A stretch of 32,000 bases of DNA, taken from Candidatus Hermodarchaeota archaeon. GTDB taxonomy: Archaea > Asgardarchaeota > Heimdallarchaeia > Hodarchaeales > Hodarchaeaceae. Location: NCBI GenBank assembly GCA_048886185.1, contig JBHLKY010000014.1:1-32000 (forward strand). The letters are read 5' to 3'. Below, in pieces: positions 426 through 22,181 of this stretch (its first letter is position 1; each line of letters starts with the position of its first letter). Under the pieces are notes generated by a model. That model was not told where the DNA came from. It saw only the letters and a program-made list of their open reading frames with translations, and did no database searches. A program made the translations under genes and the position numbers.

Positions 426-2168
426 TCACATATAATAAGTGCCTTCTTTTTCTTTTAACCGTGTTATTGTGACTTTAAGTGTTTCTTTTAGGGTATACAG
501 CAAGTTAAATCCCTTTTGGGTGATGGTATAGTTTCTATAGCGGCCATCTCGAAGGACTTGGGATGATACATATGATTCGATATAATCTAGTTCCTTTAAT
601 TTCTTGATTTCTTTTGACAGAGTTGAGGCTGCGATATCTAAGCTTTGGGCTAATTTTGCTGGGTTGGTATCGCTTGGATCTTGATAAGCGATCTCAATCA
701 GTGTTAAGATGGTTCGCCATTTCATCCCTGACTGGAGGTCATTCTTTATATCAGAGGGAAAGAATTCGACCAGAGAGATCGGTTCAGCAGATTCTAAGAG
801 GGGGACTGTGATTGGTTGAGGTAGTACTCTTGTCTGTAGATTTTCAATTCCTACTACGAGTTTATCATAAATGGGTCTTATTCTCTCGATTTGTTCTGTT
901 GTATTTAATTCTGTAAAAGGTTCTTCTGACTCATCTTCATGTTTTTTCTCTCTTGACCTGAAGAGGTAATAACTTCCGCTGATGCTCCCTCCCAATGCTA
1001 CTAGAAGGATTCCAAGAAAGATTATAATCCCTAAATTATCGGGGGATTTTTGTGCATTCTCTATCGCATCAGGAGAATATTCTGCTAGTGGATATGGATC
1101 AGTATTATTGCTTTTGCCATCAAGTTGATACGACGTGTCTATGATCAAATCTTCATCCAGATCAAGAAGTGGCTGATCATCCCAATAATTATATTGAAAG
1201 ATATTATTGTTTCCGTCATCAACAGCTTGTGTTTCTCCTCCGTTATTTCCGGCAAAATTATTGAATTGGATTGAATTATCGTTTGAGCCTAGGGTGGCTA
1301 AGATCCCATACTCTTGATTGTCAGTAATATTATTGTAATTAAGCCTGTTTCTTGAGGCGTATTCTAGACGGATCCCATATTTTTGGTTCAGTTGGATGGT
1401 ATTATTTGTTATCGTGTTATCATGGGCCGAGTTTAGGAGATTAATCCCATAAATGCTTTTGAACAATTCATTTTCTGTTATCACGGTTTTGGAGGTATGA
1501 TCTAGGAGGATGTTGTTTTGAGTATGCTTTCCATCCTGATGGTCGTGAATGGAGTTATTACTAACTCTTATCGTCTGACTATTCTTTATGTGTATCCCAT
1601 TTCCATTATTTTTTTGGACAACATTAGATGTGATATTACTATTGATTACTCTCTCGAAAAATATCCCAAATTTATTGTTTAATGTGATGTTATTGTTTAT
1701 ACAAATAATTTCAGAGGTATTACTAACTCTTATTCCATCCTCACAATTACTGATTAGGTTTTTTTCTATTCTAGCGTGTTGAACATTTGAAAGGCGGATC
1801 CCTGATGATGCTGTGGTCGATCCATCCAGATAATTATTAATAATATGGAAAGTGACTGTTGTATTGTTGATTGATATTAAATCCCCGTTTGTTGCGGTGA
1901 TTTCGAGTCCTTCAATCCGATAGGGATCTTCCATACTCCCAGACCCTAAGAACCCGAGTTCTGTAAATTGGCTATCAGAGGTGATCAAAATGGGATCATG
2001 GGGAGTTTTTGTCTCAATTTTTCCTCTTTTTGTTTGTAATTCTTCCAATGGAATGACTGGATCACTAAGTTCACTAGTTTCCACCTTGATTCGGATATTT
2101 GTCTCATCACTTGTACCTATCATTATTATTATAATGAATATTGTGATTAACAGCTTATATTGACTCAA
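426..2168 (-). CDS. Membrane-anchored NosD-like right-handed beta-helix protein with a C-terminal cytoplasmic MarR-like winged helix
   Basis: TTG start; N-terminal hydrophobic signal (LLITIFIIIIMIG); Asn-rich beta-helix repeats (NNxIxxNxxxGI); NosD-type YWDD...DPYPL motif; TM LGIIIFLGILLVALGGSISGSYYLF followed by RSREKK; wHTH LAQSLDIAASTLSKEIKKLKELDYI...DGRYRNYTITQKG. Confidence 0.85.
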   Translation of the reverse strand: MSQYKLLITIFIIIIMIGTSDETNIRIKVETSELSDPVIPLEELQTKRGKIETKTPHDPILITSDSQFTELGFLGSGSMEDPYRIEGLEITATNGDLISINNTTVTFHIINNYLDGSTTASSGIRLSNVQHARIEKNLISNCEDGIRVSNTSEIICINNNITLNNKFGIFFERVINSNITSNVVQKNNGNGIHIKNSQTIRVSNNSIHDHQDGKHTQNNILLDHTSKTVITENELFKSIYGINLLNSAHDNTITNNTIQLNQKYGIRLEYASRNRLNYNNITDNQEYGILATLGSNDNSIQFNNFAGNNGGETQAVDDGNNNIFQYNYWDDQPLLDLDEDLIIDTSYQLDGKSNNTDPYPLAEYSPDAIENAQKSPDNLGIIIFLGILLVALGGSISGSYYLFRSREKKHEDESEEPFTELNTTEQIERIRPIYDKLVVGIENLQTRVLPQPITVPLLESAEPISLVEFFPSDIKNDLQSGMKWRTILTLIEIAYQDPSDTNPAKLAQSLDIAASTLSKEIKKLKELDYIESYVSSQVLRDGRYRNYTITQKGFNLLYTLKETLKVTITRLKEKEGTYYM

Positions 2169-2420: not shown

Positions 2421-3143
2421 ATGTCCTTTATTCTTCCGAAAGTATGGATGCTATTGAAGCACATTCCTCCCAAAACTACTCAAACATTTACAGATCTTGA
2501 GAAACATGGGTTTAATCCGAGAACCCTTTCGAAGTACTTACAAATCGCTCAAAAAAGCAATCTTTTAATAAAACAGGGACAAGCTTATCTGTTAACAGAG
2601 CTGGGAATCCTTTACACCCATCTTGTGCGTCAACTCGAGGAATTAACCTCTTTTCTAGACATTCTAGAGAAAATTCCTCGGAGAGAGATTCATTCTTTTT
2701 TGCAGATTCATGTTCCCCTCTTAAAGAGGTATTATTCTAACCGATTGAAGGGCATCGTGTTATTTGGGTCATCAGCTACGACTGCGTGGCGGCCTGACAG
2801 TGATATTGACCTCTTTATTGTGGTTCAGGATTGGAACATGCCTACGTGGGAGCGAGCCACTGAATTGTATAAAATTCGTCTTGCAACATTGGACTTAATA
2901 GAGGATGTCTTTGATCTTCCTGTGTCTTACTATCCCTTGGATCAGGTAGAAACAGGTAGGTTCCACGCCATTTATCCTGATATTCAACGAAATGGCATCA
3001 TTCTCTGGCAAGAGGAGGATTTCATGCTGAGATTGTTTGATTCCATCCGAGAGGGATTGAAACAAGAAGATAAAATCCATATCACAACTCCTGATGGTGA
3101 GTCGCTATGGATCGCTCAAAAAATAATGTCGAGAGATATTTGA
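2421..3143 (+). CDS. Minimal nucleotidyltransferase (MNT, MntA-like antitoxin) with an N-terminal winged helix
   Basis: LFGSSATTAWRPDSDIDL matches the GSx10DxD motif; N-terminal NPRTLSKYLQIAQKSNLL...YLLTELG resembles a wHTH; overlaps the downstream HEPN gene. Confidence 0.85.
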   Translation: MSFILPKVWMLLKHIPPKTTQTFTDLEKHGFNPRTLSKYLQIAQKSNLLIKQGQAYLLTELGILYTHLVRQLEELTSFLDILEKIPRREIHSFLQIHVPLLKRYYSNRLKGIVLFGSSATTAWRPDSDIDLFIVVQDWNMPTWERATELYKIRLATLDLIEDVFDLPVSYYPLDQVETGRFHAIYPDIQRNGIILWQEEDFMLRLFDSIREGLKQEDKIHITTPDGESLWIAQKIMSRDI

Positions 3144-3565
3144 GGATCGCCAAGAAAGCCCAACAACGAGCTGCTGATTGGGTTCGTAATGCTGAAGTGG
3201 CATTGGAAGAAAACCGCTGGAATGATGTTGTATACAGTGCCCAGACGGCTGCTGAACAGTCCTTGAAGAGTATTTTGCTTGCCTTAGGAGTTTCCTATAA
3301 GAAGGTTCATGATATTAGTGTCCCCTTTCGTTTACTGAGGAATGAGGAGATTCTCTCTGAGCAGTTTCGCACTCGAATCCCGATCTTTGCCGAATGGCTT
3401 ATTCAATTGACTCATGAAAGACATTTAGCGGGATATGGTTTTGAGGAGGATCTGGAAGAGGACTACTTCAAAGACTATGCGCCTCAAAGTCTGGATAAAT
3501 GCAAGGAGATTCATAAGACCTGTATACTAGAGCTTGACAGAATTTCGAAAAGGTTGTTCAACTAA
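3107..3565 (+). CDS. HEPN domain protein (COG2250-like), partner of the MNT
   Basis: Typical HEPN N-terminus (AEVALEENRWNDVVYSAQTAAEQSLKSIL), KVHDI motif, ERHLAGYG in place of the RY motif; 37-nt overlap with the MNT gene. Confidence 0.85.
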   Translation: MDRSKNNVERYLRIAKKAQQRAADWVRNAEVALEENRWNDVVYSAQTAAEQSLKSILLALGVSYKKVHDISVPFRLLRNEEILSEQFRTRIPIFAEWLIQLTHERHLAGYGFEEDLEEDYFKDYAPQSLDKCKEIHKTCILELDRISKRLFN

Positions 3566-3826: not shown

Positions 3827-4321
3827 CTAACTTTTTACACTAGGTTCTAACCATCTCGTTTCAATAAAGGAGATAGTATTTTTATCAGGATCTTGGATTG
3901 TAAACATTGATATCATATCTGGAATATCTATAATATCGGAAGTCTTAACTTTTTTTGTTTCCAAAACTGTTTTAATTTCTTCTAGATTAGTTGTTGTAAT
4001 ATTTAGTACGTTTACGGGAATAAATTCTTTTTTTCGAGACAAACTAATCCCTAAATATGCCCCTTTAACAGGAAGCTTGTATTCGCACCAGCCCATTTCC
4101 GCTGGAGCCTCAAAATTCTTTTCTAGTTCTAAGACTGTTTCATAAAACGTTTTTGCTCTTTCCATATCTGAAACAGGATGTACAGTGTATAAGGAATCAT
4201 TACCATATAATTTCGTTATCGGTTTAACTTTTGGTTTGTTAACTACTGTTTTTTTCGTGGTTGTTGTCTTTTTCTTAGTAGTAGCTTTTTTGGTTGAACT
4301 TACTCTTTTTTTTCGTGGCAT
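3827..4321 (-). CDS. VOC (glyoxalase/bleomycin-resistance) family protein with a Lys/Thr-rich N-terminal tail
   Basis: VSDMERAKTFYETVLEL and FTIQDPDKNTISFIE are VOC signatures; the first 37 aa contain 15 K/R and no acidic residues. Confidence 0.85.
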   Translation of the reverse strand: MPRKKRVSSTKKATTKKKTTTTKKTVVNKPKVKPITKLYGNDSLYTVHPVSDMERAKTFYETVLELEKNFEAPAEMGWCEYKLPVKGAYLGISLSRKKEFIPVNVLNITTTNLEEIKTVLETKKVKTSDIIDIPDMISMFTIQDPDKNTISFIETRWLEPSVKS

Positions 4322-4552
4322 ATTATTAATCTCCCTAAGACCTAGATTCTAAAGGATGTATATCACATTCTTCAATCAGTAATTAAATTCCTTCTTCTCT
4401 GAATATCGCTAAACCCGACATAAATAGTATCTGCTAAAAAAAAACATCTCACCGTTCCCTCATGTTTCTTACTCCATTTTCTTCTTCGATAGATAGCTAT
4501 TCGAAAAGCCCACAGAAGTAATATAAAATCAGGAATGTGGATCCAAAATGAA

Positions 4553-5494
4553 TTAACTCTTTTTTTTCCGATTGGTTGTTTTCTTGTATAGCTCTGCTAG
4601 ATCATCTAGATCAACATCATCTATTAAATCCTTGATTTCTTTATCAAGATTAGATTTCTTACTCACTGAAGAATTTGCTTTAATCTCATCTAGTACCGTT
4701 CTTAGTTCTTCTTCAAAGCTTCCTTTCACTAGCACAGAACTCTGTAATTTTGCTTGTCCCTTTTGAGTCAACCTGTAAACTTGATCGTGCTTGACAAATT
4801 CAATCTCCCCACTAGCTAATAATTGACGTAGAATTCTCATAATTTTATCTCTATCGTACTCCACTTGTCCTGTTTTCGAGATAATCTCTAATTGACCGAG
4901 TATTGATAAGATAGGCAGTCCCGTTTCATGACCATTAATCATATCCAAGATGTAAATGGTGAGGAACCTCGAGAGTCTGTCGGGTAGTGTTTGATCTTCT
5001 TCTGTTAACCGATTCTTGATCCAAGTAAGGACAAGTTCAAAATCCTGTGGTCTTTGTGCTGTACTCGAAAACACCCTATGTGGTCGATCAAGCCTGTTTA
5101 GGATATCTAACTGTTCGATAATGCCTGAAGGATGGACTTGAGCGATATCCTTCTTATGGAAAAGAATCGCCAAGGGTTTTCCTATTGAATGTGGGTGATT
5201 AAGTATTTTCTCAAATTCAGGGATTACTTCTGAAAACCTTCCTTCATCACTGCCATCAATGACGAAGATTATAGCCTCTACATATTCAATAAATTTCGAC
5301 ACAAAACCTCTTACTTCTTTTCTTCCCCCAACTTCTATGATATTGAAAGTTGTTGTATTAAGTGTAATTTCCGATGTATGTTGAGCTGTAGCAGGGGTTC
5401 CTTGAGTGAATAGTCCTTGCTGAAAAGAGTTAATCAAGGTAGATTTTCCACTTTTTTCTAATCCATATAATAGTACCTGAATAGAAATTGGCAG
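4553..5494 (-). CDS. Arf-like small GTPase fused to a C-terminal winged helix; start extended to CTG at 5494 (313 aa)
   Basis: The frame continues upstream of the ORF-track TTG (5437) as CTG CCA ATT TCT ATT CAG GTA CTA TTA TAT GGA TTA GAA AAA AGT GGA AAA TCT ACC = (M)PISIQVLLYGLEKSGKST (P-loop), bounded by TAG. G3 is IEVGG; IIFVIDGSD; G4 is FHKKD; wHTH DRDKIMRILRQLLASGEI...YRLTQKG. Confidence 0.85.
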   Translation of the reverse strand: MPISIQVLLYGLEKSGKSTLINSFQQGLFTQGTPATAQHTSEITLNTTTFNIIEVGGRKEVRGFVSKFIEYVEAIIFVIDGSDEGRFSEVIPEFEKILNHPHSIGKPLAILFHKKDIAQVHPSGIIEQLDILNRLDRPHRVFSSTAQRPQDFELVLTWIKNRLTEEDQTLPDRLSRFLTIYILDMINGHETGLPILSILGQLEIISKTGQVEYDRDKIMRILRQLLASGEIEFVKHDQVYRLTQKGQAKLQSSVLVKGSFEEELRTVLDEIKANSSVSKKSNLDKEIKDLIDDVDLDDLAELYKKTTNRKKKS

Positions 5495-5643
5495 TTTTGT
5501 CCCCTACTAATGAGGTATTATTAATTTATTATAAGAGGATTTATTTATTTTTAGTTTTTCTTTGTTACACTATAACATCCTAATCCTTTAAGTCATGAGA
5601 TTAAATCATGTTTAACAGTTAAGAACACCAGGGATAGAATCAT

Positions 5644-7818
5644 ATGTCTACAACAGATCAGGAAATTACATTTGGACATGCAACTATTCATCCTAAGAAT
5701 GATGTTGTCGCAGGAAGTTATGGAACTTGGATTCTGACCCTAACGGTTGGAACACATGGTATAGATGATGGAGGACACATTAGAATCGCGTGGAGAGACG
5801 TTTCTGATTGGAGAAGACCTCAATTCTCGAATCCAACTCTACCAAACTACACCACTGTTACCACAACAGGAAAAGCGGAATTGGATGTCTGTTTTGAGAA
5901 TAGAGGCTATATTCGTCCATGGAGGCCCTGTTTAACCATCACGATATATGATGGGTTTTTAGCGATGGGGGATACTGTAACTGTCATTTATGGGGATACC
6001 AGTGAAGGAGGACCTGGTTCCATGGCTCAAACGTTTGTAGAAGATAGTTTTGAGTTCCGAGTTCTTGTGGATCCTTTTGGAACGGGTCAATATGAAATAA
6101 TTGATGACTCCCCTGTTCTGGAAGTAGTTGCTGGGGAACCAGAGACACTCCAAGTAACAGCTCCATCAGAGACAGTAATTGAGAATCCCACGTGGTTTTC
6201 TATAAAAATAGAAGATAAATGGGGAAATCTCACGAAGAATTATACTGGAACAGTGACGTTTTCTTCCAGTGATCTCCAAGTAAGTCTTCCAAAGCCATAC
6301 ACTTTTAAATCTGAAGATAGGGGGAGTCATCGATTTGAGAATCTCACCTTCCACACCGCTGGGATTCATAACATCACTGTTTCTGATGTGAAAAGCAAAT
6401 TAATCACTATAAGTAACCCTGTTGTTGTTTATAAAGATCCAATGGAATTAAAGTTATACTGGGGAGACCTACATGGACAAACAGAAGAAACCATTGGCAC
6501 TGGAACAGTTGATCAATATTTTCGTTTTGCTCGGGATGCTGCGGCGCTTGATTTTGTATCTCATACAGGAAACGACTTTCAAATCACCAATGATCACTAT
6601 CAGGACACTCAAAGAATAGTAAAAAAATATCATGTCCCAGGAAGATTTATCACCTTTCTTGGCTATGAATGGTCAGGGAATACCCCATCAGGGGGAGACC
6701 ATAATGTCTACTTCTTTAAAGATGACCAATCTATACATCGAAGTAGTCATACTCAAATAAAGGATAAATCAGATATTGAAACTGATCGTTACCCTATTCC
6801 CCGACTATTTGATACTTTTCGTGGAAGAAATGATGTTTTGATTGTTCCACATGTCGGAGGACGCCATGCAGTTTTGGATTATTATGATTCTTCATTAACA
6901 CCATTTATCGAGATTTCATCTGTACATGGGCACTTTGAATGGTTTGCTCGAGATGCAATGAAGCGAGGGTTGAAAGTTGGTTTTATTGGAGGCAGTGATG
7001 ACCACACCGGCAGGCCTGGAGGAGCACGGCCCACTTCAATGGTTGAGGCTGTAATTGGTGGGCTGATGGCTACTTACGCAAGGAATTTAACTCGAGAATC
7101 CTTATGGGATGCCTTTCGAAAGCGTCATGTCTATGCTACTACTGGAAAAAGAATCATCTTGCGTGTTACGTGTGGTGATGCGATGATGGGAGACGAACTT
7201 ACCCTTAATCATCCTCCAACGATATTTGTGAAAGTATTTGGTACATCTGGTTTAGAAAAAGTAGAAATTATCAGGGGAACAGATGTTGTGTATGTCCATC
7301 AATTGAATCTGTCCAAAAAATTGCCTAATATGATCAAGATAGTGTGGAGTGGTGCTAGAGTAACTACCAGACGAAGAAACACTGATTGGAGTGGGGAATT
7401 CACAATCGAAAAGGGGAAAATTCTATCAGCCAAGGAGTTTGCTTTTGATCTTCCATGGGATGGAATCATTAAACAGACAGAACAGAGGGTGTGTTGGTCC
7501 TCAACAACTTCCGGGGATTCTGATGGAATTATTCTAAAAGTAGAGGCATCAGATGAGACTTGGATGACATTCAACACAGAAATTGCTCATATTTCCTTCC
7601 AACTAACCCAACTACAGAAACCATTGATCTTGGAAGCAGGAGGAATTGACCAAAAAGTGGAAATATCATATCTTTCAGAAAAACCAGCTTCAAATCATGT
7701 AACGTTTGAATATACTGATCGAGAGGTAAACCAAGGTGTCAACGCGTATTATGTAAGGGTTTTACAAGACGATGGAGAAAAAGCTTGGTCTAGTCCCATT
7801 TTTGTTAATTTTGAGTAA
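5644..7818 (+). CDS. DUF3604-family PHP-like metal-dependent hydrolase with Ig-like N-terminal domains
   Basis: YWGDLHGQT, GYEWS..GGDHNVYF, PHVGG, GFIGGSDDHTGRPG, YATTG and the terminal YYVRVLQDDGEKAWSSPI are characteristic of DUF3604. Confidence 0.85.
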   Translation: MSTTDQEITFGHATIHPKNDVVAGSYGTWILTLTVGTHGIDDGGHIRIAWRDVSDWRRPQFSNPTLPNYTTVTTTGKAELDVCFENRGYIRPWRPCLTITIYDGFLAMGDTVTVIYGDTSEGGPGSMAQTFVEDSFEFRVLVDPFGTGQYEIIDDSPVLEVVAGEPETLQVTAPSETVIENPTWFSIKIEDKWGNLTKNYTGTVTFSSSDLQVSLPKPYTFKSEDRGSHRFENLTFHTAGIHNITVSDVKSKLITISNPVVVYKDPMELKLYWGDLHGQTEETIGTGTVDQYFRFARDAAALDFVSHTGNDFQITNDHYQDTQRIVKKYHVPGRFITFLGYEWSGNTPSGGDHNVYFFKDDQSIHRSSHTQIKDKSDIETDRYPIPRLFDTFRGRNDVLIVPHVGGRHAVLDYYDSSLTPFIEISSVHGHFEWFARDAMKRGLKVGFIGGSDDHTGRPGGARPTSMVEAVIGGLMATYARNLTRESLWDAFRKRHVYATTGKRIILRVTCGDAMMGDELTLNHPPTIFVKVFGTSGLEKVEIIRGTDVVYVHQLNLSKKLPNMIKIVWSGARVTTRRRNTDWSGEFTIEKGKILSAKEFAFDLPWDGIIKQTEQRVCWSSTTSGDSDGIILKVEASDETWMTFNTEIAHISFQLTQLQKPLILEAGGIDQKVEISYLSEKPASNHVTFEYTDREVNQGVNAYYVRVLQDDGEKAWSSPIFVNFE

Positions 7819-18008: not shown

Positions 18009-20291
18009 TTATTTCTTATGTCTTCTTCTAAGAATAACTAAACTGATGAAAAGCAAAGGAATAATAAATATACTTGGAAATGTACTTTTTCTTGGGAGAC
18101 TTTCTGCTGATGAAGTAGTTTCCAGTGTTGATTTAGTATCTTCTTTTGATGTTATGGTTGAGGGTATTATCGTTGTTATTTCAGTCTGTTCTGGACAAAC
18201 TGGAGACGTAATGGAGGGAATGAGGAAAGTTGAAATCAGACGACTTATATCAGCTCCTTCTGATGTATAGACCACCACAATATCAAGTTCAGGGATTATA
18301 TATATTTTCTGAGTGTTAAATCCCCATGCAAAGTAACTTTTAATGTTACAATCAGTGAACGATGTGAACCACACTTGATAACCATATTGATTCGTGCTTC
18401 CTAGGTGAGGATTACTTCTTGTAGCATTCTGTATCCATTCCGAGGACACGATTTGTTTCCCATTAAAGGGCCATGTTCCATTTTGTAGATATAAATATCC
18501 AATTTTTGCCATGTCTTGGGGTGTTAAATAGAGCCCTGAACCTCCACGTGCAACCCCTGATGGATCCAAAAACCATAAAACATCCCCTGCTGTAATATTT
18601 AGCGGATCAAAAAGATATTCTTGAGCGAAAGAAAGAGTTGTACGCCCTGTTACTTTCTGGATGATAACAGACAATAGATGAGACCCACCTGTGTTATAAT
18701 TAAATACCGTCCCTGGGTCAAAATCCATTGGACGATCAAGAACATATTGGGCCCAATCAGGACTTTCAACCATTAAACGATATGAGTTTCCTGGATCACT
18801 AGTTGCAATGTTCCATTCTGCCCAGTTCATCCCCGAAGTCATAGTGAGTAAGTGTTCGAGGGTCAGTGCCTCCTTTCGAGAGTCTATGTTCGAGATATTG
18901 CGATCAGGGAAAAAATCTAAGACTTTCTGATGCACACTGTCAATATATCCCATTTCAATGGCGATTCCCACTAGTAGTGAGGTTATACTCTTAGTACAAG
19001 AGTAAATGTAATGTTTGCAATCTCTAGTATAAATGTGATTATTGGTCTGATAATATTGTTCTGCAACGAGATACCCATTGCGTAGGACAAGAAAACTATG
19101 AGCCAGAGGATTATATTGTTGTATATAATCAGTCATATCGTTTATTAATGCTGAATTCATTCCTTGAGCCTCCGGACTAGTTGTTTGCCAGAAGGAAGCT
19201 CTTGGAGGGATTAGTGGATTGTCCCCCCAGAGCTTGATTGTCCAGTCCTCACTACCTGAAGCCAGTATAGAACCGTCAGGAGAAAAATCTAGACTCTTAA
19301 TAGAATTAGTATGACCTGATAAAGTCCACAGATTTTCACCAGTCGTAATATTCCAAATTTTAATATTAGCATTATTTAGAGGCCATGGAGAAAACTTACC
19401 TCCACCAGAAGCCAACAAACCAGTTGGTGAAAAACTAACAGATAGAACAACGTCTTCTTGACTCTCTAAGGTATCAATGAGAGTACCTGTCGATGTATTC
19501 CATATTTTGATTGTCCCATCCCTACTTGCTGAAGCGAGATTCTTCCCATCAGGTGAGAATGCGATTCCTTTCACTGCAGCTGTATGGTTTACCATTTCTC
19601 TTAATTCCTCACCTGTTGACATGTTCCAGAACTTGATGCTACTATCTCCACAGGCTGTGGCTAACACATTACTATCAATGGGAGACAAGGCTACTGCATT
19701 CACCATGTCATTATGTGTTAAATTTTGGATAATCAGTCCGTTTGTTAAGTCCCAGATTCGGACTGAACCAGAAATACCAATTTTTCCTTCTCCAGAGATT
19801 AGTAACTTGCCATCAGGTGAAAATCTAATTTCATTACCCATTTCTTCTTGTATTGGTAATGTTTGTAATATGGTTTCTGTAGTAATATTCCAAATTCTAA
19901 TGGTCCCGTCTCGGGCTGTAGAGGCTAAAAGACCCTCCTCGGAAAAACATACACCATAAACGAAATTTGTATGTCCGTAAAGGACACTGACAAAAGAACC
20001 ATCACTTGTATTCCAAATCCGGATAGTCCCGTCAAATCCTCCAGCGGAAGCTAGATATTTTCCATCAGAAGAAAAAGCAATATCATTAACCCCAGCGCCA
20101 TGTCCTTTTAGTGTGGCGAAATTATTAAACTCATTAAAGCTTCCAATTTGTGATCTGGTTTTGACGTCAGTTTCATTTACTATCATACTATTGTGGTTAT
20201 TTCCATTTTGTACTATTACAACAGGAATAATTATAAGAATGATAGCTATTGCTATCAATGTAGAGGCGAACTTTTTCTTATTAAATATCAT
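18009..20291 (-). CDS. Surface protein: signal/TM, 7-blade WD40 propeller, AmpC/beta-lactamase-like serine hydrolase, Thr/Ser stalk, C-terminal TM
   Basis: KKKFASTLIAIAIILIIIPVVIV; seven GH...IW(N/D/G) repeats; SxxK (YSCTKS), FNYNTGG, LTPQDMAKIGYLYLQNGTW, AWGFNTQKIYIIPELDIVVV; tail FPSIFIIPLLFISLVILRRRHKK. Start taken at MIFNKKK. Confidence 0.88.
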   Translation of the reverse strand: MIFNKKKFASTLIAIAIILIIIPVVIVQNGNNHNSMIVNETDVKTRSQIGSFNEFNNFATLKGHGAGVNDIAFSSDGKYLASAGGFDGTIRIWNTSDGSFVSVLYGHTNFVYGVCFSEEGLLASTARDGTIRIWNITTETILQTLPIQEEMGNEIRFSPDGKLLISGEGKIGISGSVRIWDLTNGLIIQNLTHNDMVNAVALSPIDSNVLATACGDSSIKFWNMSTGEELREMVNHTAAVKGIAFSPDGKNLASASRDGTIKIWNTSTGTLIDTLESQEDVVLSVSFSPTGLLASGGGKFSPWPLNNANIKIWNITTGENLWTLSGHTNSIKSLDFSPDGSILASGSEDWTIKLWGDNPLIPPRASFWQTTSPEAQGMNSALINDMTDYIQQYNPLAHSFLVLRNGYLVAEQYYQTNNHIYTRDCKHYIYSCTKSITSLLVGIAIEMGYIDSVHQKVLDFFPDRNISNIDSRKEALTLEHLLTMTSGMNWAEWNIATSDPGNSYRLMVESPDWAQYVLDRPMDFDPGTVFNYNTGGSHLLSVIIQKVTGRTTLSFAQEYLFDPLNITAGDVLWFLDPSGVARGGSGLYLTPQDMAKIGYLYLQNGTWPFNGKQIVSSEWIQNATRSNPHLGSTNQYGYQVWFTSFTDCNIKSYFAWGFNTQKIYIIPELDIVVVYTSEGADISRLISTFLIPSITSPVCPEQTEITTIIPSTITSKEDTKSTLETTSSAESLPRKSTFPSIFIIPLLFISLVILRRRHKK
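19225..20105 (-). repeat. Seven WD40 repeats (protein-level repeat)
   Basis: Seven ~42-aa units, most containing FSPDG or FS-x-x-G and ending I(R/K)(I/F/L)W; boundaries approximate. Confidence 0.85.
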
Positions 20292-20359
20292 AACTACCAA
20301 TTCCATCGTAATTTGAATATAAAACATGTTAATGATATCTATTATAAAAATGTTTTCAT

Positions 20360-20378
20360 AAAAATTATAATAATTTTT
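20360..20378. promoter_or_regulatory. Inverted repeat in the AT-rich divergent intergenic region; possible operator
   Basis: AAAAATTA-TAA-TAATTTTT (8-bp arms) between the WD40 gene and the TrmB-like regulator. The region is very AT-rich, so chance is plausible. Confidence 0.3.
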
Positions 20379-20449
20379 TTATAATACCAATATTATTTTA
20401 AAGTAATGTAATAACTCAATTTTAACTATCAAATTCGGTTGAATGAATC

Positions 20450-21607
20450 TTGGAAAGGTTATCACAAGAGATAGAAGAAATTTTCACTTTTGAACCACTC
20501 ATTATGGATGCCTTAAACCATAGCGTTACAGATCAACATGTTCGTGTTTTAGCGATGATGTTCAAACTTGGTGGTTATACCACTCTAAATGTTTTAACAA
20601 AAAAATTAGCCATCGCACAACCAACCGTTAGTAAGAGAGTAGCAGAGCTAGAAGACATGGGATTTATCAGAAAAAATTCAGAATTGAAACCTAAAGTGCT
20701 TGTTCTCCTTCTAACTGTTGAAGATCTTAAAACCAGATTAAATCTGAAGATTACTTCTCAACGGGCTGCTTCATCCTTCTTGCAAGAAATCTCACAAATC
20801 AAAGATAAACAGGCAATAATAGATGCTTTTAACAAAGCAATAAAGCTACTCTATCCCAATGAAGAATTGATAGCAAAAATGATTGTTTTTACTTATCTTC
20901 ATGGTACGATTCAGAGAAATGATCTAATCAAATTAATAGATCCCTCGGGAAAGACTATAATGAAATTAAATCGTGATATAGATGTAATATTGACGCTATA
21001 TCCAACGATCTTTAATACAATTTATTATAAATACCAAAAATCAAGTACATTTATTCAACCACGCCTCCCTCTGGATTCCTTTGCGAAAGCTCGGCTTATA
21101 CTTCTTGAATCAATACATTATAATCAAAATCTACTATTAGAGAGAATCGGTCAATTCATTGGGATTGAATTTGATGCAATTATTCCTCATCAACCATTAC
21201 CAAGTATTCCTGACATTGAACACCGAATAAATACCTGTTTAAAATATTATGAGACAGTAAAAATTATAGATAACTCTATTTATCAAAATAGATTTGTAAA
21301 TGGAGGATTATTAGAACTAATAGCATCAAGTAATCATTTTACAAATAATCACAACTTAAAAATGTTAACAAACCATTCCATTAGCATACCGTCAAATATG
21401 ATCTTGTCACAGATTAAACAAAAGCCTATAACAGAACCTATTAATCGCGACTACATTACACGTGATTTTATTATCTTTGAAGAACATGGATGTCTAGTTA
21501 TCCCTTCTAAAGTTAGTAGTCCTCCCTATTATCATATTGCACCTAAATTTACAAAAACTATTTCAAATATCTTTAACACAAATTGGAGGAGTACTAATGC
21601 TGTCTGA
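20450..21607 (+). CDS. TrmB-like transcriptional regulator with two wHTH/coiled-coil modules and a C-terminal PLD-like effector domain
   Basis: LTKKLAIAQPTVSKRVAELEDMGFI (HTH); a second, degenerate module ending FIQPRLPLDSFAKARL; C-terminal RDFIIFEEHGCLVIP...APKFTKTISNIFNTNW as in TrmB effector domains; TTG start. Confidence 0.7.
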   Translation: MERLSQEIEEIFTFEPLIMDALNHSVTDQHVRVLAMMFKLGGYTTLNVLTKKLAIAQPTVSKRVAELEDMGFIRKNSELKPKVLVLLLTVEDLKTRLNLKITSQRAASSFLQEISQIKDKQAIIDAFNKAIKLLYPNEELIAKMIVFTYLHGTIQRNDLIKLIDPSGKTIMKLNRDIDVILTLYPTIFNTIYYKYQKSSTFIQPRLPLDSFAKARLILLESIHYNQNLLLERIGQFIGIEFDAIIPHQPLPSIPDIEHRINTCLKYYETVKIIDNSIYQNRFVNGGLLELIASSNHFTNNHNLKMLTNHSISIPSNMILSQIKQKPITEPINRDYITRDFIIFEEHGCLVIPSKVSSPPYYHIAPKFTKTISNIFNTNWRSTNAV

Positions 21608-22181
21608 ATTTTTAAGAATGATTAAAGGCTTTTTATTAGTAATTGGCCCAACTAAAGCTGGGAAAACAAGCATTTTGAGACGACTGGTAACGGGGGAATT
21701 TACAGATCAAGAACCAACACTCGGATTTCGTGAAGAAACCATAGCAAAAGTTAGAATTATAGAGATTGGAGGACAGAGAGATTTTAAAAAGTATTGGACT
21801 GAAGCCCTTAATCAGAACCCAGTACACATTTTTTTTGTTATTGATGTGACAAGTAAAACCGATTTTAACGACTTTAATATTTTTGTTAAGGAAAATCAGA
21901 AGAGATTCCCCGAAATATTAGAACATACAATCTTAATTGTAAATAAAATGGATTTAGTCTCTGCATTGCCACCTTATATCCTTAAAAACAATCAAATTAT
22001 CGAATGCAGTGCTAAAACGGGGGAAGGTTTACTCGATTTATTGGAACTAATAGCTAATTTCAAGGATGTAGCTGAAGCTAAGATTTTAATCAACCATAGC
22101 GAGAGAGAAGATAAAATAAGTGAAAATGAAGATAAAGAAATAGCTAAAGCTATTTTAAAAAAGTATGAAGGGAAATTTTAA
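21597..22181 (+). CDS. Arf-like small GTPase (start moved to ATG 21597, 194 aa)
   Basis: GPTKAGKT (G1), EPTLGF (G2/switch I), IEIGGQ...YW (G3 variant), FFVIDV, NKMD (G4), CSAK (G5). GGAGG Shine-Dalgarno 6 nt before the ATG; 11-nt overlap with the upstream regulator. Confidence 0.9.
   Translation: MLSEFLRMIKGFLLVIGPTKAGKTSILRRLVTGEFTDQEPTLGFREETIAKVRIIEIGGQRDFKKYWTEALNQNPVHIFFVIDVTSKTDFNDFNIFVKENQKRFPEILEHTILIVNKMDLVSALPPYILKNNQIIECSAKTGEGLLDLLELIANFKDVAEAKILINHSEREDKISENEDKEIAKAILKKYEGKF

Follow-up and report, generated by a model that had tools for sequence, protein, structure and literature searches.

Asgard archaea carry large and mostly uncharacterized expansions of small GTPases, and ideas on how eukaryotic cell organization arose depend centrally on knowing which processes these switches govern. 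Proteins of the Arf family (Arf6, Arl3, Arl8 and Sar1) typically begin with an amphipathic helix, together with a Gly2 for myristoylation in eukaryotes. Their G-domain fold, described by Pfam Arf, is also that of the Asgard ArfR proteins (HodArfR1 and GerdArfR1; PDB 8OUK, 8OUL and 8OUM) and of the protein described here. Its gene lies on the minus strand (4553..5494) of a 32,000-nucleotide stretch of a Candidatus Hermodarchaeota genome (contig JBHLKY010000014.1; referred to below as the window), and its 313 codons plus TAA encode an Arf-like G domain, a winged helix, an acidic helix and a basic tail. The Arf-type P-loop, G-L-[DE]-x-x-G-K-[ST], is shared with the Arf family. However, E-x-G-G-R takes the place of D-x-G-G-Q, there is neither an amphipathic helix nor a Gly2, and the G domain is followed by a 146-residue C-terminal extension that contains the winged helix. 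Furthermore, unlike the Arf and ArfR proteins, the family is limited to a single lineage at the genus level. Its architecture is a new variation on the Arf-type GTPase and, because of its confinement to that lineage, not an ancestor-of-eukaryotes feature. The Asgard Arf papers that we searched make no mention of a winged-helix fusion or of this motif set, and public records name the relatives "ADP-ribosylation factor-like protein" or "GTP-binding protein."

Parts of this architecture have parallels elsewhere. Chlamydomonas Arl13B (PDB 4M9Q and 5DI3) also lacks the catalytic Gln, hydrolyzes GTP very slowly (PMC4868535), and carries a helical extension, itself functional, C-terminal to its G domain. 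It differs in having a Gly at the Gln position (Arg here) and a coiled coil with a Pro-rich region, in being ciliary and eukaryotic, and in sharing only 26 to 28% identity with our protein. In the Roc domain of LRRK2 (Roc-COR), an Arg is found at the position equivalent to Ras Q61, and a single chain links the G domain to the domain that comes next. This residue, Arg1398, is reported to be a gamma-phosphate sensor, and among 20 Roco proteins surveyed only LRRK2 has an Arg at this position (PMC13345514, a preprint). However, our protein has no match to COR, its Pfam Roc score stays below the cut-off (24.8 bits versus 27), which speaks against ROCO membership, and the alignment of LRRK2 was confined to the G domain (Z 15.8). 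The resemblance looks like convergence rather than membership. With regard to the C-terminal domain, PadR subfamily 2 proteins (LmrR, 7WJP and 3ELK; RTP and Sso10a have similar architectures) likewise consist of a winged helix and a C-terminal helix, with a similar layout of H2, long loop and H3 and a Y/W-x-[IL]-T-x-K-G motif after the wing. They are free-standing, whereas the domain analyzed here is fused to a GTPase, has no Pfam match to PadR, has lost the DNA signature and bears a shorter, acidic wing.

A preliminary description of the gene, made from the sequence alone and without naming the strand, had listed a series of motifs and recognized an Arf-like G domain, followed by a winged helix-turn-helix (HTH) domain and a charged tail. 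All of the motifs are present in the minus-strand translation, and the G domain (residues 1 to 167; 4994..5494, minus) was confirmed by both sequence and structure. Pfam Arf (PF00025) matched residues 5 to 162 at 1.2e-23, with 83.9 bits against a cut-off of 22.3, and the Gtr1/RagA, SRPRB, Roc and Ras scores were far below this value. The best PDB relative by sequence was Chlamydomonas Arl13B (3.7e-18), followed by Arl3 and Arl8, and Arl13B was also the best Foldseek match (E 6e-15). When matches were ordered by structural Z score, Arf6 came first (Z 24.8, root-mean-square deviation [rmsd] of 1.7 over 163 residues), ahead of Arl13B (Z 22.5) and Sar1 (Z 22.1). The Asgard HodArfR1 was more distant (Z 16.6, E 4e-13), with a sequence score of 52 bits versus 56 to 69 for Arl13B, Arl3 and Arl8.

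We then looked at the nucleotide-binding motifs, scoring conservation in an alignment of 36 full-length relatives and counting motif variants in all relatives that cover the site (60 for G3 and 71 for G4). The P-loop (G1) reads GLEKSGKS (residues 11 to 18; 5441..5464, minus), and G[LMF]ExSGK[ST] is found in every covering relative. The switch-I threonine of G2, assigned by alignment to Arf members, is Thr36 (5387..5389, minus) and is invariant in the 36 sequences. G3, in switch II, is EVGGR (residues 54 to 58; 5321..5335, minus), with a Glu for the Asp and an Arg for the catalytic Gln, and aligns to DLGGG of Arl13B; the D-x-x-G-Q with the catalytic Gln that marks the Arf family is thus not found here. 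As the preliminary description had noted, an Arg does occupy the Gln position, and this is a trait of the family: E[VI]GGR was found in 59 of the 60 covering relatives, E54 and R58 being invariant in the alignment. The same description had also seen a meaningful change, possibly affecting nucleotide specificity, in the HKKD of G4 (residues 113 to 116; 5147..5158, minus). This was not supported. The first residue varies among the 71 relatives (HKx[DE] in 49, NKxD in 20 and SKQD in 2). In the 36-sequence alignment, K114 is invariant, and D116, the guanine-specifying Asp, is nearly so. G5 is T-A-Q (residues 145 to 147; 5054..5062, minus), for a family consensus S/T-A-K that most members keep.

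Judging from these alignments, it is the Glu-for-Asp and Arg-for-Gln changes in G3 that define the family, and the His of HKKD is not a family trait. Guanine specificity is probably unaltered, since the specifying Asp of G4 is kept. Because the nucleotide-binding residues of G1, G2, G4 and G5 are retained, the G domain would most likely bind guanine nucleotides. By analogy with Arl13B and the LRRK2 Roc domain, intrinsic GTP hydrolysis may be slow or dependent on a partner, and Arg58 could help to read the gamma-phosphate and to order switch II. The family offers an independent natural example of an Arg at the catalytic Gln position, which could inform how noncanonical GTPases sense and hydrolyze GTP.

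The region C-terminal to the G domain is predicted to be a winged helix whose nearest kin are PadR-type (residues 170 to 250; 4745..4987, minus), and all orthologues keep it. The two findings that would have counted against the preliminary description, a C-terminal region that fails to model as a winged helix and orthologues that generally lack one, thus did not turn up. AlphaFold, run with the 36-sequence alignment, gave the whole protein a mean predicted local distance difference test (pLDDT) score of 80.5 and a predicted template modeling (pTM) score of 0.76, the latter suggesting that the domains are packed in a fixed way. Within the winged helix, pLDDT was 82 to 93, and the C-terminal part modeled alone adopted the same fold. 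The model consists of H1 (173 to 187), H2 (195 to 206), H3 (215 to 228) and a beta-hairpin wing (229 to 243; hairpin at 231 to 242 in the full-length model). The HTH-like stretch ILRQLLASGEIEF spans residues 221 to 233, and YRLTQKG follows the wing at residues 240 to 246. H3, which is in the position of a recognition helix in the model (4811..4852, minus), has a net charge of +3 and conserves R215, D216, K217, R223 and K224. The helices after the wing (residues 244 to 275; 4670..4765, minus) correspond to the helix at the C terminus of small PadR proteins.

Several comparisons point to the same kinship. VIA, a structure search independent of Foldseek, gave Z 11.0 to the PadR-like chains 7wjp and 3elk over 93 to 95 residues including the post-wing helix, the alignments reaching model residue ~107, which corresponds to protein residue ~272. 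The top Foldseek matches in the PDB were all winged-helix proteins (PadR-like, RTP, LmrR, MarR and BlaI; E ~1e-2), and the ESM Atlas neighbors of the C-terminal part belong to the PadR, HTH_45 and DUF4364 families. With hhalign, for which PadR, MarR, TrmB and HTH_45 domain alignments were built as controls from the source genome and its relatives, the family profile matched PadR with 91 to 93% probability (E 3e-7 to 1e-6), compared to 26% for HTH_45, 2% for MarR and 0.4% for TrmB. The kinship is remote at the sequence level. The PadR hidden Markov model (PF03551) matched none of the 36 members at E values up to 1, a search of PDB sequences with the C-terminal profile gave nothing significant (best E 0.041), and Pfam returned only sub-threshold HTH_45, Mrr_N and ANAPC2 matches, the last in 3 of 36 members (best 5.8e-5). 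VIA also found the cullin and APC2 WHB domains (Z 9.1 to 9.6; for APC2, an rmsd of 1.7 over 70 residues) and the Rpa2 winged helix (Z 8.3). However, the corresponding Pfam matches are sub-threshold and there is no cullin or RPA context; this likeness may reflect only the common winged-helix fold. A wide VIA search for a solved two-domain analogue, such as Roc-COR or a SelB-like protein, found no chain that aligned beyond the G domain.

The protein ends in the acidic-then-basic tail that had been read from the sequence. A variable linker (residues 276 to 288; 4631..4669, minus), with gaps and length variation in the 36-sequence alignment and a pLDDT of ~50, leads to a conserved acidic amphipathic helix (residues 289 to 303; 4586..4630, minus) with the consensus E-x-L-D-E-F-D-L-D-E-L-A-E-L-Y and a net charge of -7. 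The last 10 residues (304 to 313; 4556..4585, minus) form a basic tail of the K-K-T-T-x-R-K-R-K type, with a net charge of +6 here and a family mean of +4.2. No other gene of the source genome has the tail motif. Partner-binding motifs and autoinhibitory elements commonly look like this, a conserved peptide held on a flexible tether. We dropped as unsupported a likeness of the acidic helix to the MIM1 of ESCRT-III, whose consensus fitted only in part when compared by eye. In a related species, a short remnant of the 3' end of the gene, encoding the acidic helix and basic tail, lies ~4.4 kb from the intact gene (L120, G070:C56, ~20273-20392, minus); it looks like the leftover of a partial duplication.

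To see how widely the architecture occurs, we searched protein collections and genomes for relatives. A word-indexed protein search returned 70 clusters with 42 to 99% identity over 62 to 100% of the query; complete members are ~300 amino acids long, the shorter ones being truncated or partial calls. One additional match (P0072, 192 amino acids, E 1.4e-12) covers the G domain only. The named sources are Hodarchaeota or Hodarchaeales, Heimdallarchaeota (including B3_Heim) and several metagenome-assembled genomes (MAGs) labeled Thor- or Promethearchaeota. In a library of 1.8 billion representatives, three passed 1e-30, and the next matches were ordinary or tandem Arf proteins with 20 to 31% identity; the nearest of these non-family matches (P0074-P0078) are tandem Arf-domain proteins whose high score comes from two domains adding up and is uninformative. 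When 400 genomes of the phylum were searched with the C-terminal profile, 19 of the 21 other species of the same GTDB genus had one strong match each (1e-57 to 1e-67). Nothing comparable was found in the other 379 genomes, which gave only weak generic winged-helix matches (E 2e-5 to 7e-4). Among the genomes sampled, the search across Asgard genomes that the preliminary description had proposed thus places the architecture in a single genus. The protein collection contained no stand-alone or otherwise fused C-terminal module (six shorter matches are truncated family members), and a feature search of the ESM Atlas for copies of the module gave no usable match.

The gene is intact and conserved and is no chance open reading frame. 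Non-synonymous differences (pN) amount to 0.14 to 0.30 in both domains and in the tail, where synonymous differences are near saturation at 0.5 to 0.9, and the acidic helix has a pN of 0.13 to 0.31. Omega for residues 251 to 288 is 0.13 to 0.5, with values of 0.3 to 0.5 in most pairs. Purifying selection therefore acts on all three of these parts and is looser in the linker.

What the winged helix contacts is harder to say. The preliminary description had inferred a single-chain GTP-sensing DNA-binding protein, and had given a protein-interaction module as the alternative. The fusion of the two domains in one chain stands; DNA binding, by contrast, is unproven and was weakened by what follows. 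In the structure of a PadR protein bound to DNA, Tyr20, Tyr42 and Lys67 form the conserved DNA-binding hot spot of the family, and the wing contributes (PMC5728393). In the hhalign profile alignment, Tyr20 corresponds to Leu193 (Leu in 28 of 36 members), Tyr42 to position 219 (Met, Leu, Ile or Val) and Lys67 to a deletion or to Gln238 (Gln in 29 of 36). Compared with PadR, the wing is shorter by six residues and has an acidic tip (net -2), the winged-helix domain carries a net charge of only ~+1, and the protein as a whole is acidic. The polar residues that are invariant (R176, D184, G192, Q201, G209-Q210 and R215-D216) group together on H1, H2 and the loop between H2 and H3. This grouping and the high pTM together hint at a contact surface toward the G domain or a partner. 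The protein-interaction alternative is at least as likely as DNA binding, and the similarity to the cullin, APC2 and Rpa2 domains (Z 8.3 to 9.6) is in line with it.

Since the PadR DNA-reading signature is lost and the wing is short and acidic, we favor, at somewhat less than an even chance, a slow or regulated GTP switch whose winged helix serves mainly for protein, dimerization or intramolecular contacts, together with a tethered tail. According to the model, a short conserved linker would join the G domain rigidly to the PadR-descended winged helix, which would act as an output module of one of these kinds rather than as a PadR-style operator reader. The acidic helix and basic tail, on their variable linker, could recruit a partner or fold back on the basic face of H3. 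Since switch and output module share one chain, their coupling can be tested with one recombinant protein. A prediction of the homodimer, made with two copies and the 36-sequence alignment, gave a score of 0.00, which weighs neither for nor against a dimer.

Several points count against a mainly protein-contacting winged helix. The PadR signature residues were mapped by a remote profile alignment (91%) that may be off by 1 or 2 residues, and the packing of the domains is judged from pTM and pLDDT alone. The winged helix comes from a DNA-binding superfamily, its H3 keeps R215, K217, R223 and K224, and a basic tail follows. Moreover, neither a conserved gene neighborhood nor an identified partner backs a protein-interaction role in the loci that we compared (the window and L004 to L007). 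On balance, we rank a classical DNA-reading role below a protein or intramolecular one, though not far below.

The alternative that survives best, which we hold to be possible though rather unlikely, is that the winged helix attaches to DNA, or to RNA in the manner of SelB, and that this binding is switched by the nucleotide state of the G domain. The acidic helix might then be a nucleic-acid mimic and the whole a one-component GTP-dependent regulator; a fuller version, in which Arg58 reads the nucleotide state and the acidic helix is a built-in competitor, seems to us a little less probable again. We know of no characterized small GTPase that is directly fused to a nucleic-acid-binding winged helix, and if it were true, a GTP-gated nucleic-acid regulator would occur in the archaeal order thought closest to eukaryotes. 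By fold and profile, the nearest kin of the C-terminal domain are bona fide DNA-binding regulators, and AspA, a PadR-like archaeal protein with a short wing, still binds DNA through alpha-3 (PMC5728393). H3 has its +3 charge and conserved basic residues, and the tail is basic. A second Arf-like GTPase gene in the window overlaps a gene for a MarR/TrmB-like winged HTH protein, a hint of a recurrent pairing. However, all three hot-spot positions are unconserved, and neither the shortened, acidic wing nor the charge of the domain and of the whole protein favors nucleic acid. The invariant polar residues, too, are on H1, H2 and the H2-H3 loop rather than on the outer face of H3, which fits a protein interface better, and no conserved neighboring target gene was found in the loci compared.

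Less probable by far is an Arl13B-like regulator, in which the G domain and C-terminal helices would be an exchange factor or scaffold for another Arf-like GTPase. Arl13B is the top PDB match both by sequence and by Foldseek, it acts in its GTP form without a catalytic Gln, and its C-terminal helical extension is needed for exchange-factor activity (PMC4868535); candidate clients exist as well, given the 62 matches to the Arf model in the source genome. However, the identity to Arl13B is low, Arf6 and Sar1 fit the fold equally well or better, Arl13B carries a coiled coil and no winged helix, and no co-localized or co-distributed client GTPase was identified.

The one remaining reading, a decaying or mis-annotated gene that is truncated at its 5' end and not made, is very improbable and largely refuted: the lack of an ATG, GTG or TTG before the P-loop and the disagreement of annotators over the start (CTG versus ATT) would fit it, but the whole family conserves the P-loop and beta-1, which precede the first canonical start, purifying selection extends over the whole length, the gene is single-copy in 19 of the 21 other species of the genus, and its orthologues have an NTG at the same place with a purine-rich motif before it.

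The start codon itself deserves attention. The frame is open on the minus strand from a double TAG (5509-5504) to the TAA (4555-4553), and translation of 5494-4556 gives 313 residues, identical to NCBI protein P0222 except for the initiator residue. The codon at 5494 is CTG, noncanonical as a start. Between the upstream stops and the P-loop there is no ATG, GTG or TTG, the candidate initiators being this CTG and two ATT codons. The first canonical start in frame is a TTG at residue 20, past the P-loop, and translation from there would drop beta-1 and the P-loop. The NCBI annotation of the source genome starts the protein at CTG 5494 (P0222, 313 amino acids), whereas in three sister MAGs with identical 5' DNA the annotated start is the second ATT, at 5482. 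We therefore compared 14 distinct orthologous loci at or next to the position of the CTG, 3 to 5 codons (mostly 4) ahead of the beta-1 Ile that the family conserves. An ATG is found there in L004/L011 and, shifted upstream by one codon, in L010; six loci have TTG, and the window, L005, L008, L009, L012 and L016 have CTG; in L009, a stop codon lies directly 5' of the CTG. Most of these loci have a GGGGA, GAGGA or GGAG-type purine-rich motif ~4 to 10 nucleotides upstream of the NTG, and in the window a GGGGA (5500..5504, minus), which may act as a Shine-Dalgarno sequence, lies 5 nucleotides upstream of the CTG. The ATT picked by PGAP is the codon of the conserved beta-1 Ile and is present even in orthologues with an upstream ATG.

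Because orthologues carry an NTG at the same place preceded by a purine-rich motif, translation most likely begins at the CUG (5492..5494, minus), to judge from this comparison, and the 5' end given in the preliminary description would be right. As beta-1 starts ~5 residues after the start codon and a stop lies upstream, there is no room for an N-terminal amphipathic helix. The apparent CUG start, which alternates with AUG and UUG among orthologues, bears on how genes are called in Asgard genomes, and public records give this same gene three different N termini. A scan for sigma-70 promoters and terminators gave only background levels, the sigma-70 model not being relevant to archaea. The sequencing runs listed as containing the stretch are four sediment-metagenome DNA runs of one study, with no RNA run among them.

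No conserved neighborhood was found around the gene, the flanks being wholly different between the window, L004, L005, L006 and L007; 164-residue neighbors of equal size in the window and L005 are unrelated. In L004, a locus of the complete Heimdall-type genome CP070760.1, the orthologue adjoins a Rag/Gtr-type GTPase (4184-5086, minus; Gtr1_RagA 2e-38) and a 179-amino-acid Arf-like GTPase (5548-6086, plus), so that three small-GTPase genes are clustered. We had considered the first of these, a long Arf-like neighbor, as a paralogue and rejected this, as it is of the Rag/Gtr type. Directly downstream of the gene in the window and on the same strand, 3827-4321 encodes a 164-amino-acid protein of the glyoxalase/VOC fold (Pfam Glyoxalase, 4.6e-4); its N-terminal tail is rich in Lys and Thr, and the protein is conserved only in sister MAGs. 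On the other side, a divergently transcribed gene (5644-7818, plus) encodes a 724-amino-acid DUF3604 protein (Pfam 5e-19) and is a neighbor only in the closest MAGs.

The source genome encodes further long Arf-model proteins of 318 to 416 amino acids (C17:28773-29762, C6:87723-88676, C4:29676-30725 and C12:46238-47485 of G000). By eye, the non-G part of several of them is alpha/beta, possibly roadblock- or longin-like, and not a winged helix. Fusion of Arf-like switches to various output domains seems to be a theme in this genome. In the window, 21597-22181 (plus) encodes a 194-amino-acid Arf-like GTPase (Pfam Arf, 4e-15) with EIGGQ and a possible N-terminal amphipathic helix, whose G domain is 25% identical to that of the fusion protein. 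The gene before it (20450-21607, plus) overlaps it by 11 nucleotides and encodes a 385-amino-acid protein that begins with a winged helix resembling MarR/HTH_24 (sub-threshold to borderline in Pfam). In this pair, GTPase and winged helix may be combined in the same way but without fusion.

Two other loci lie near the 5' end of the window. The overlapping genes 2421-3143 and 3107-3565 (both plus) encode a nucleotidyltransferase (NTP_transf_2/Polbeta) and a HEPN protein, as seen from Pfam matches of the sister loci, and we take the pair to be the usual MNT-HEPN toxin-antitoxin-like module. Finally, 426-2168 (minus) encodes a 580-amino-acid protein that has a hydrophobic segment and, according to the Pfam matches of the sister locus L003, NosD/beta-helix repeats. 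By eye, its C-terminal stretch is winged-HTH-like and ends in a motif resembling Y-T-I-T-Q-K-G, and the product could be a membrane-tethered regulator.

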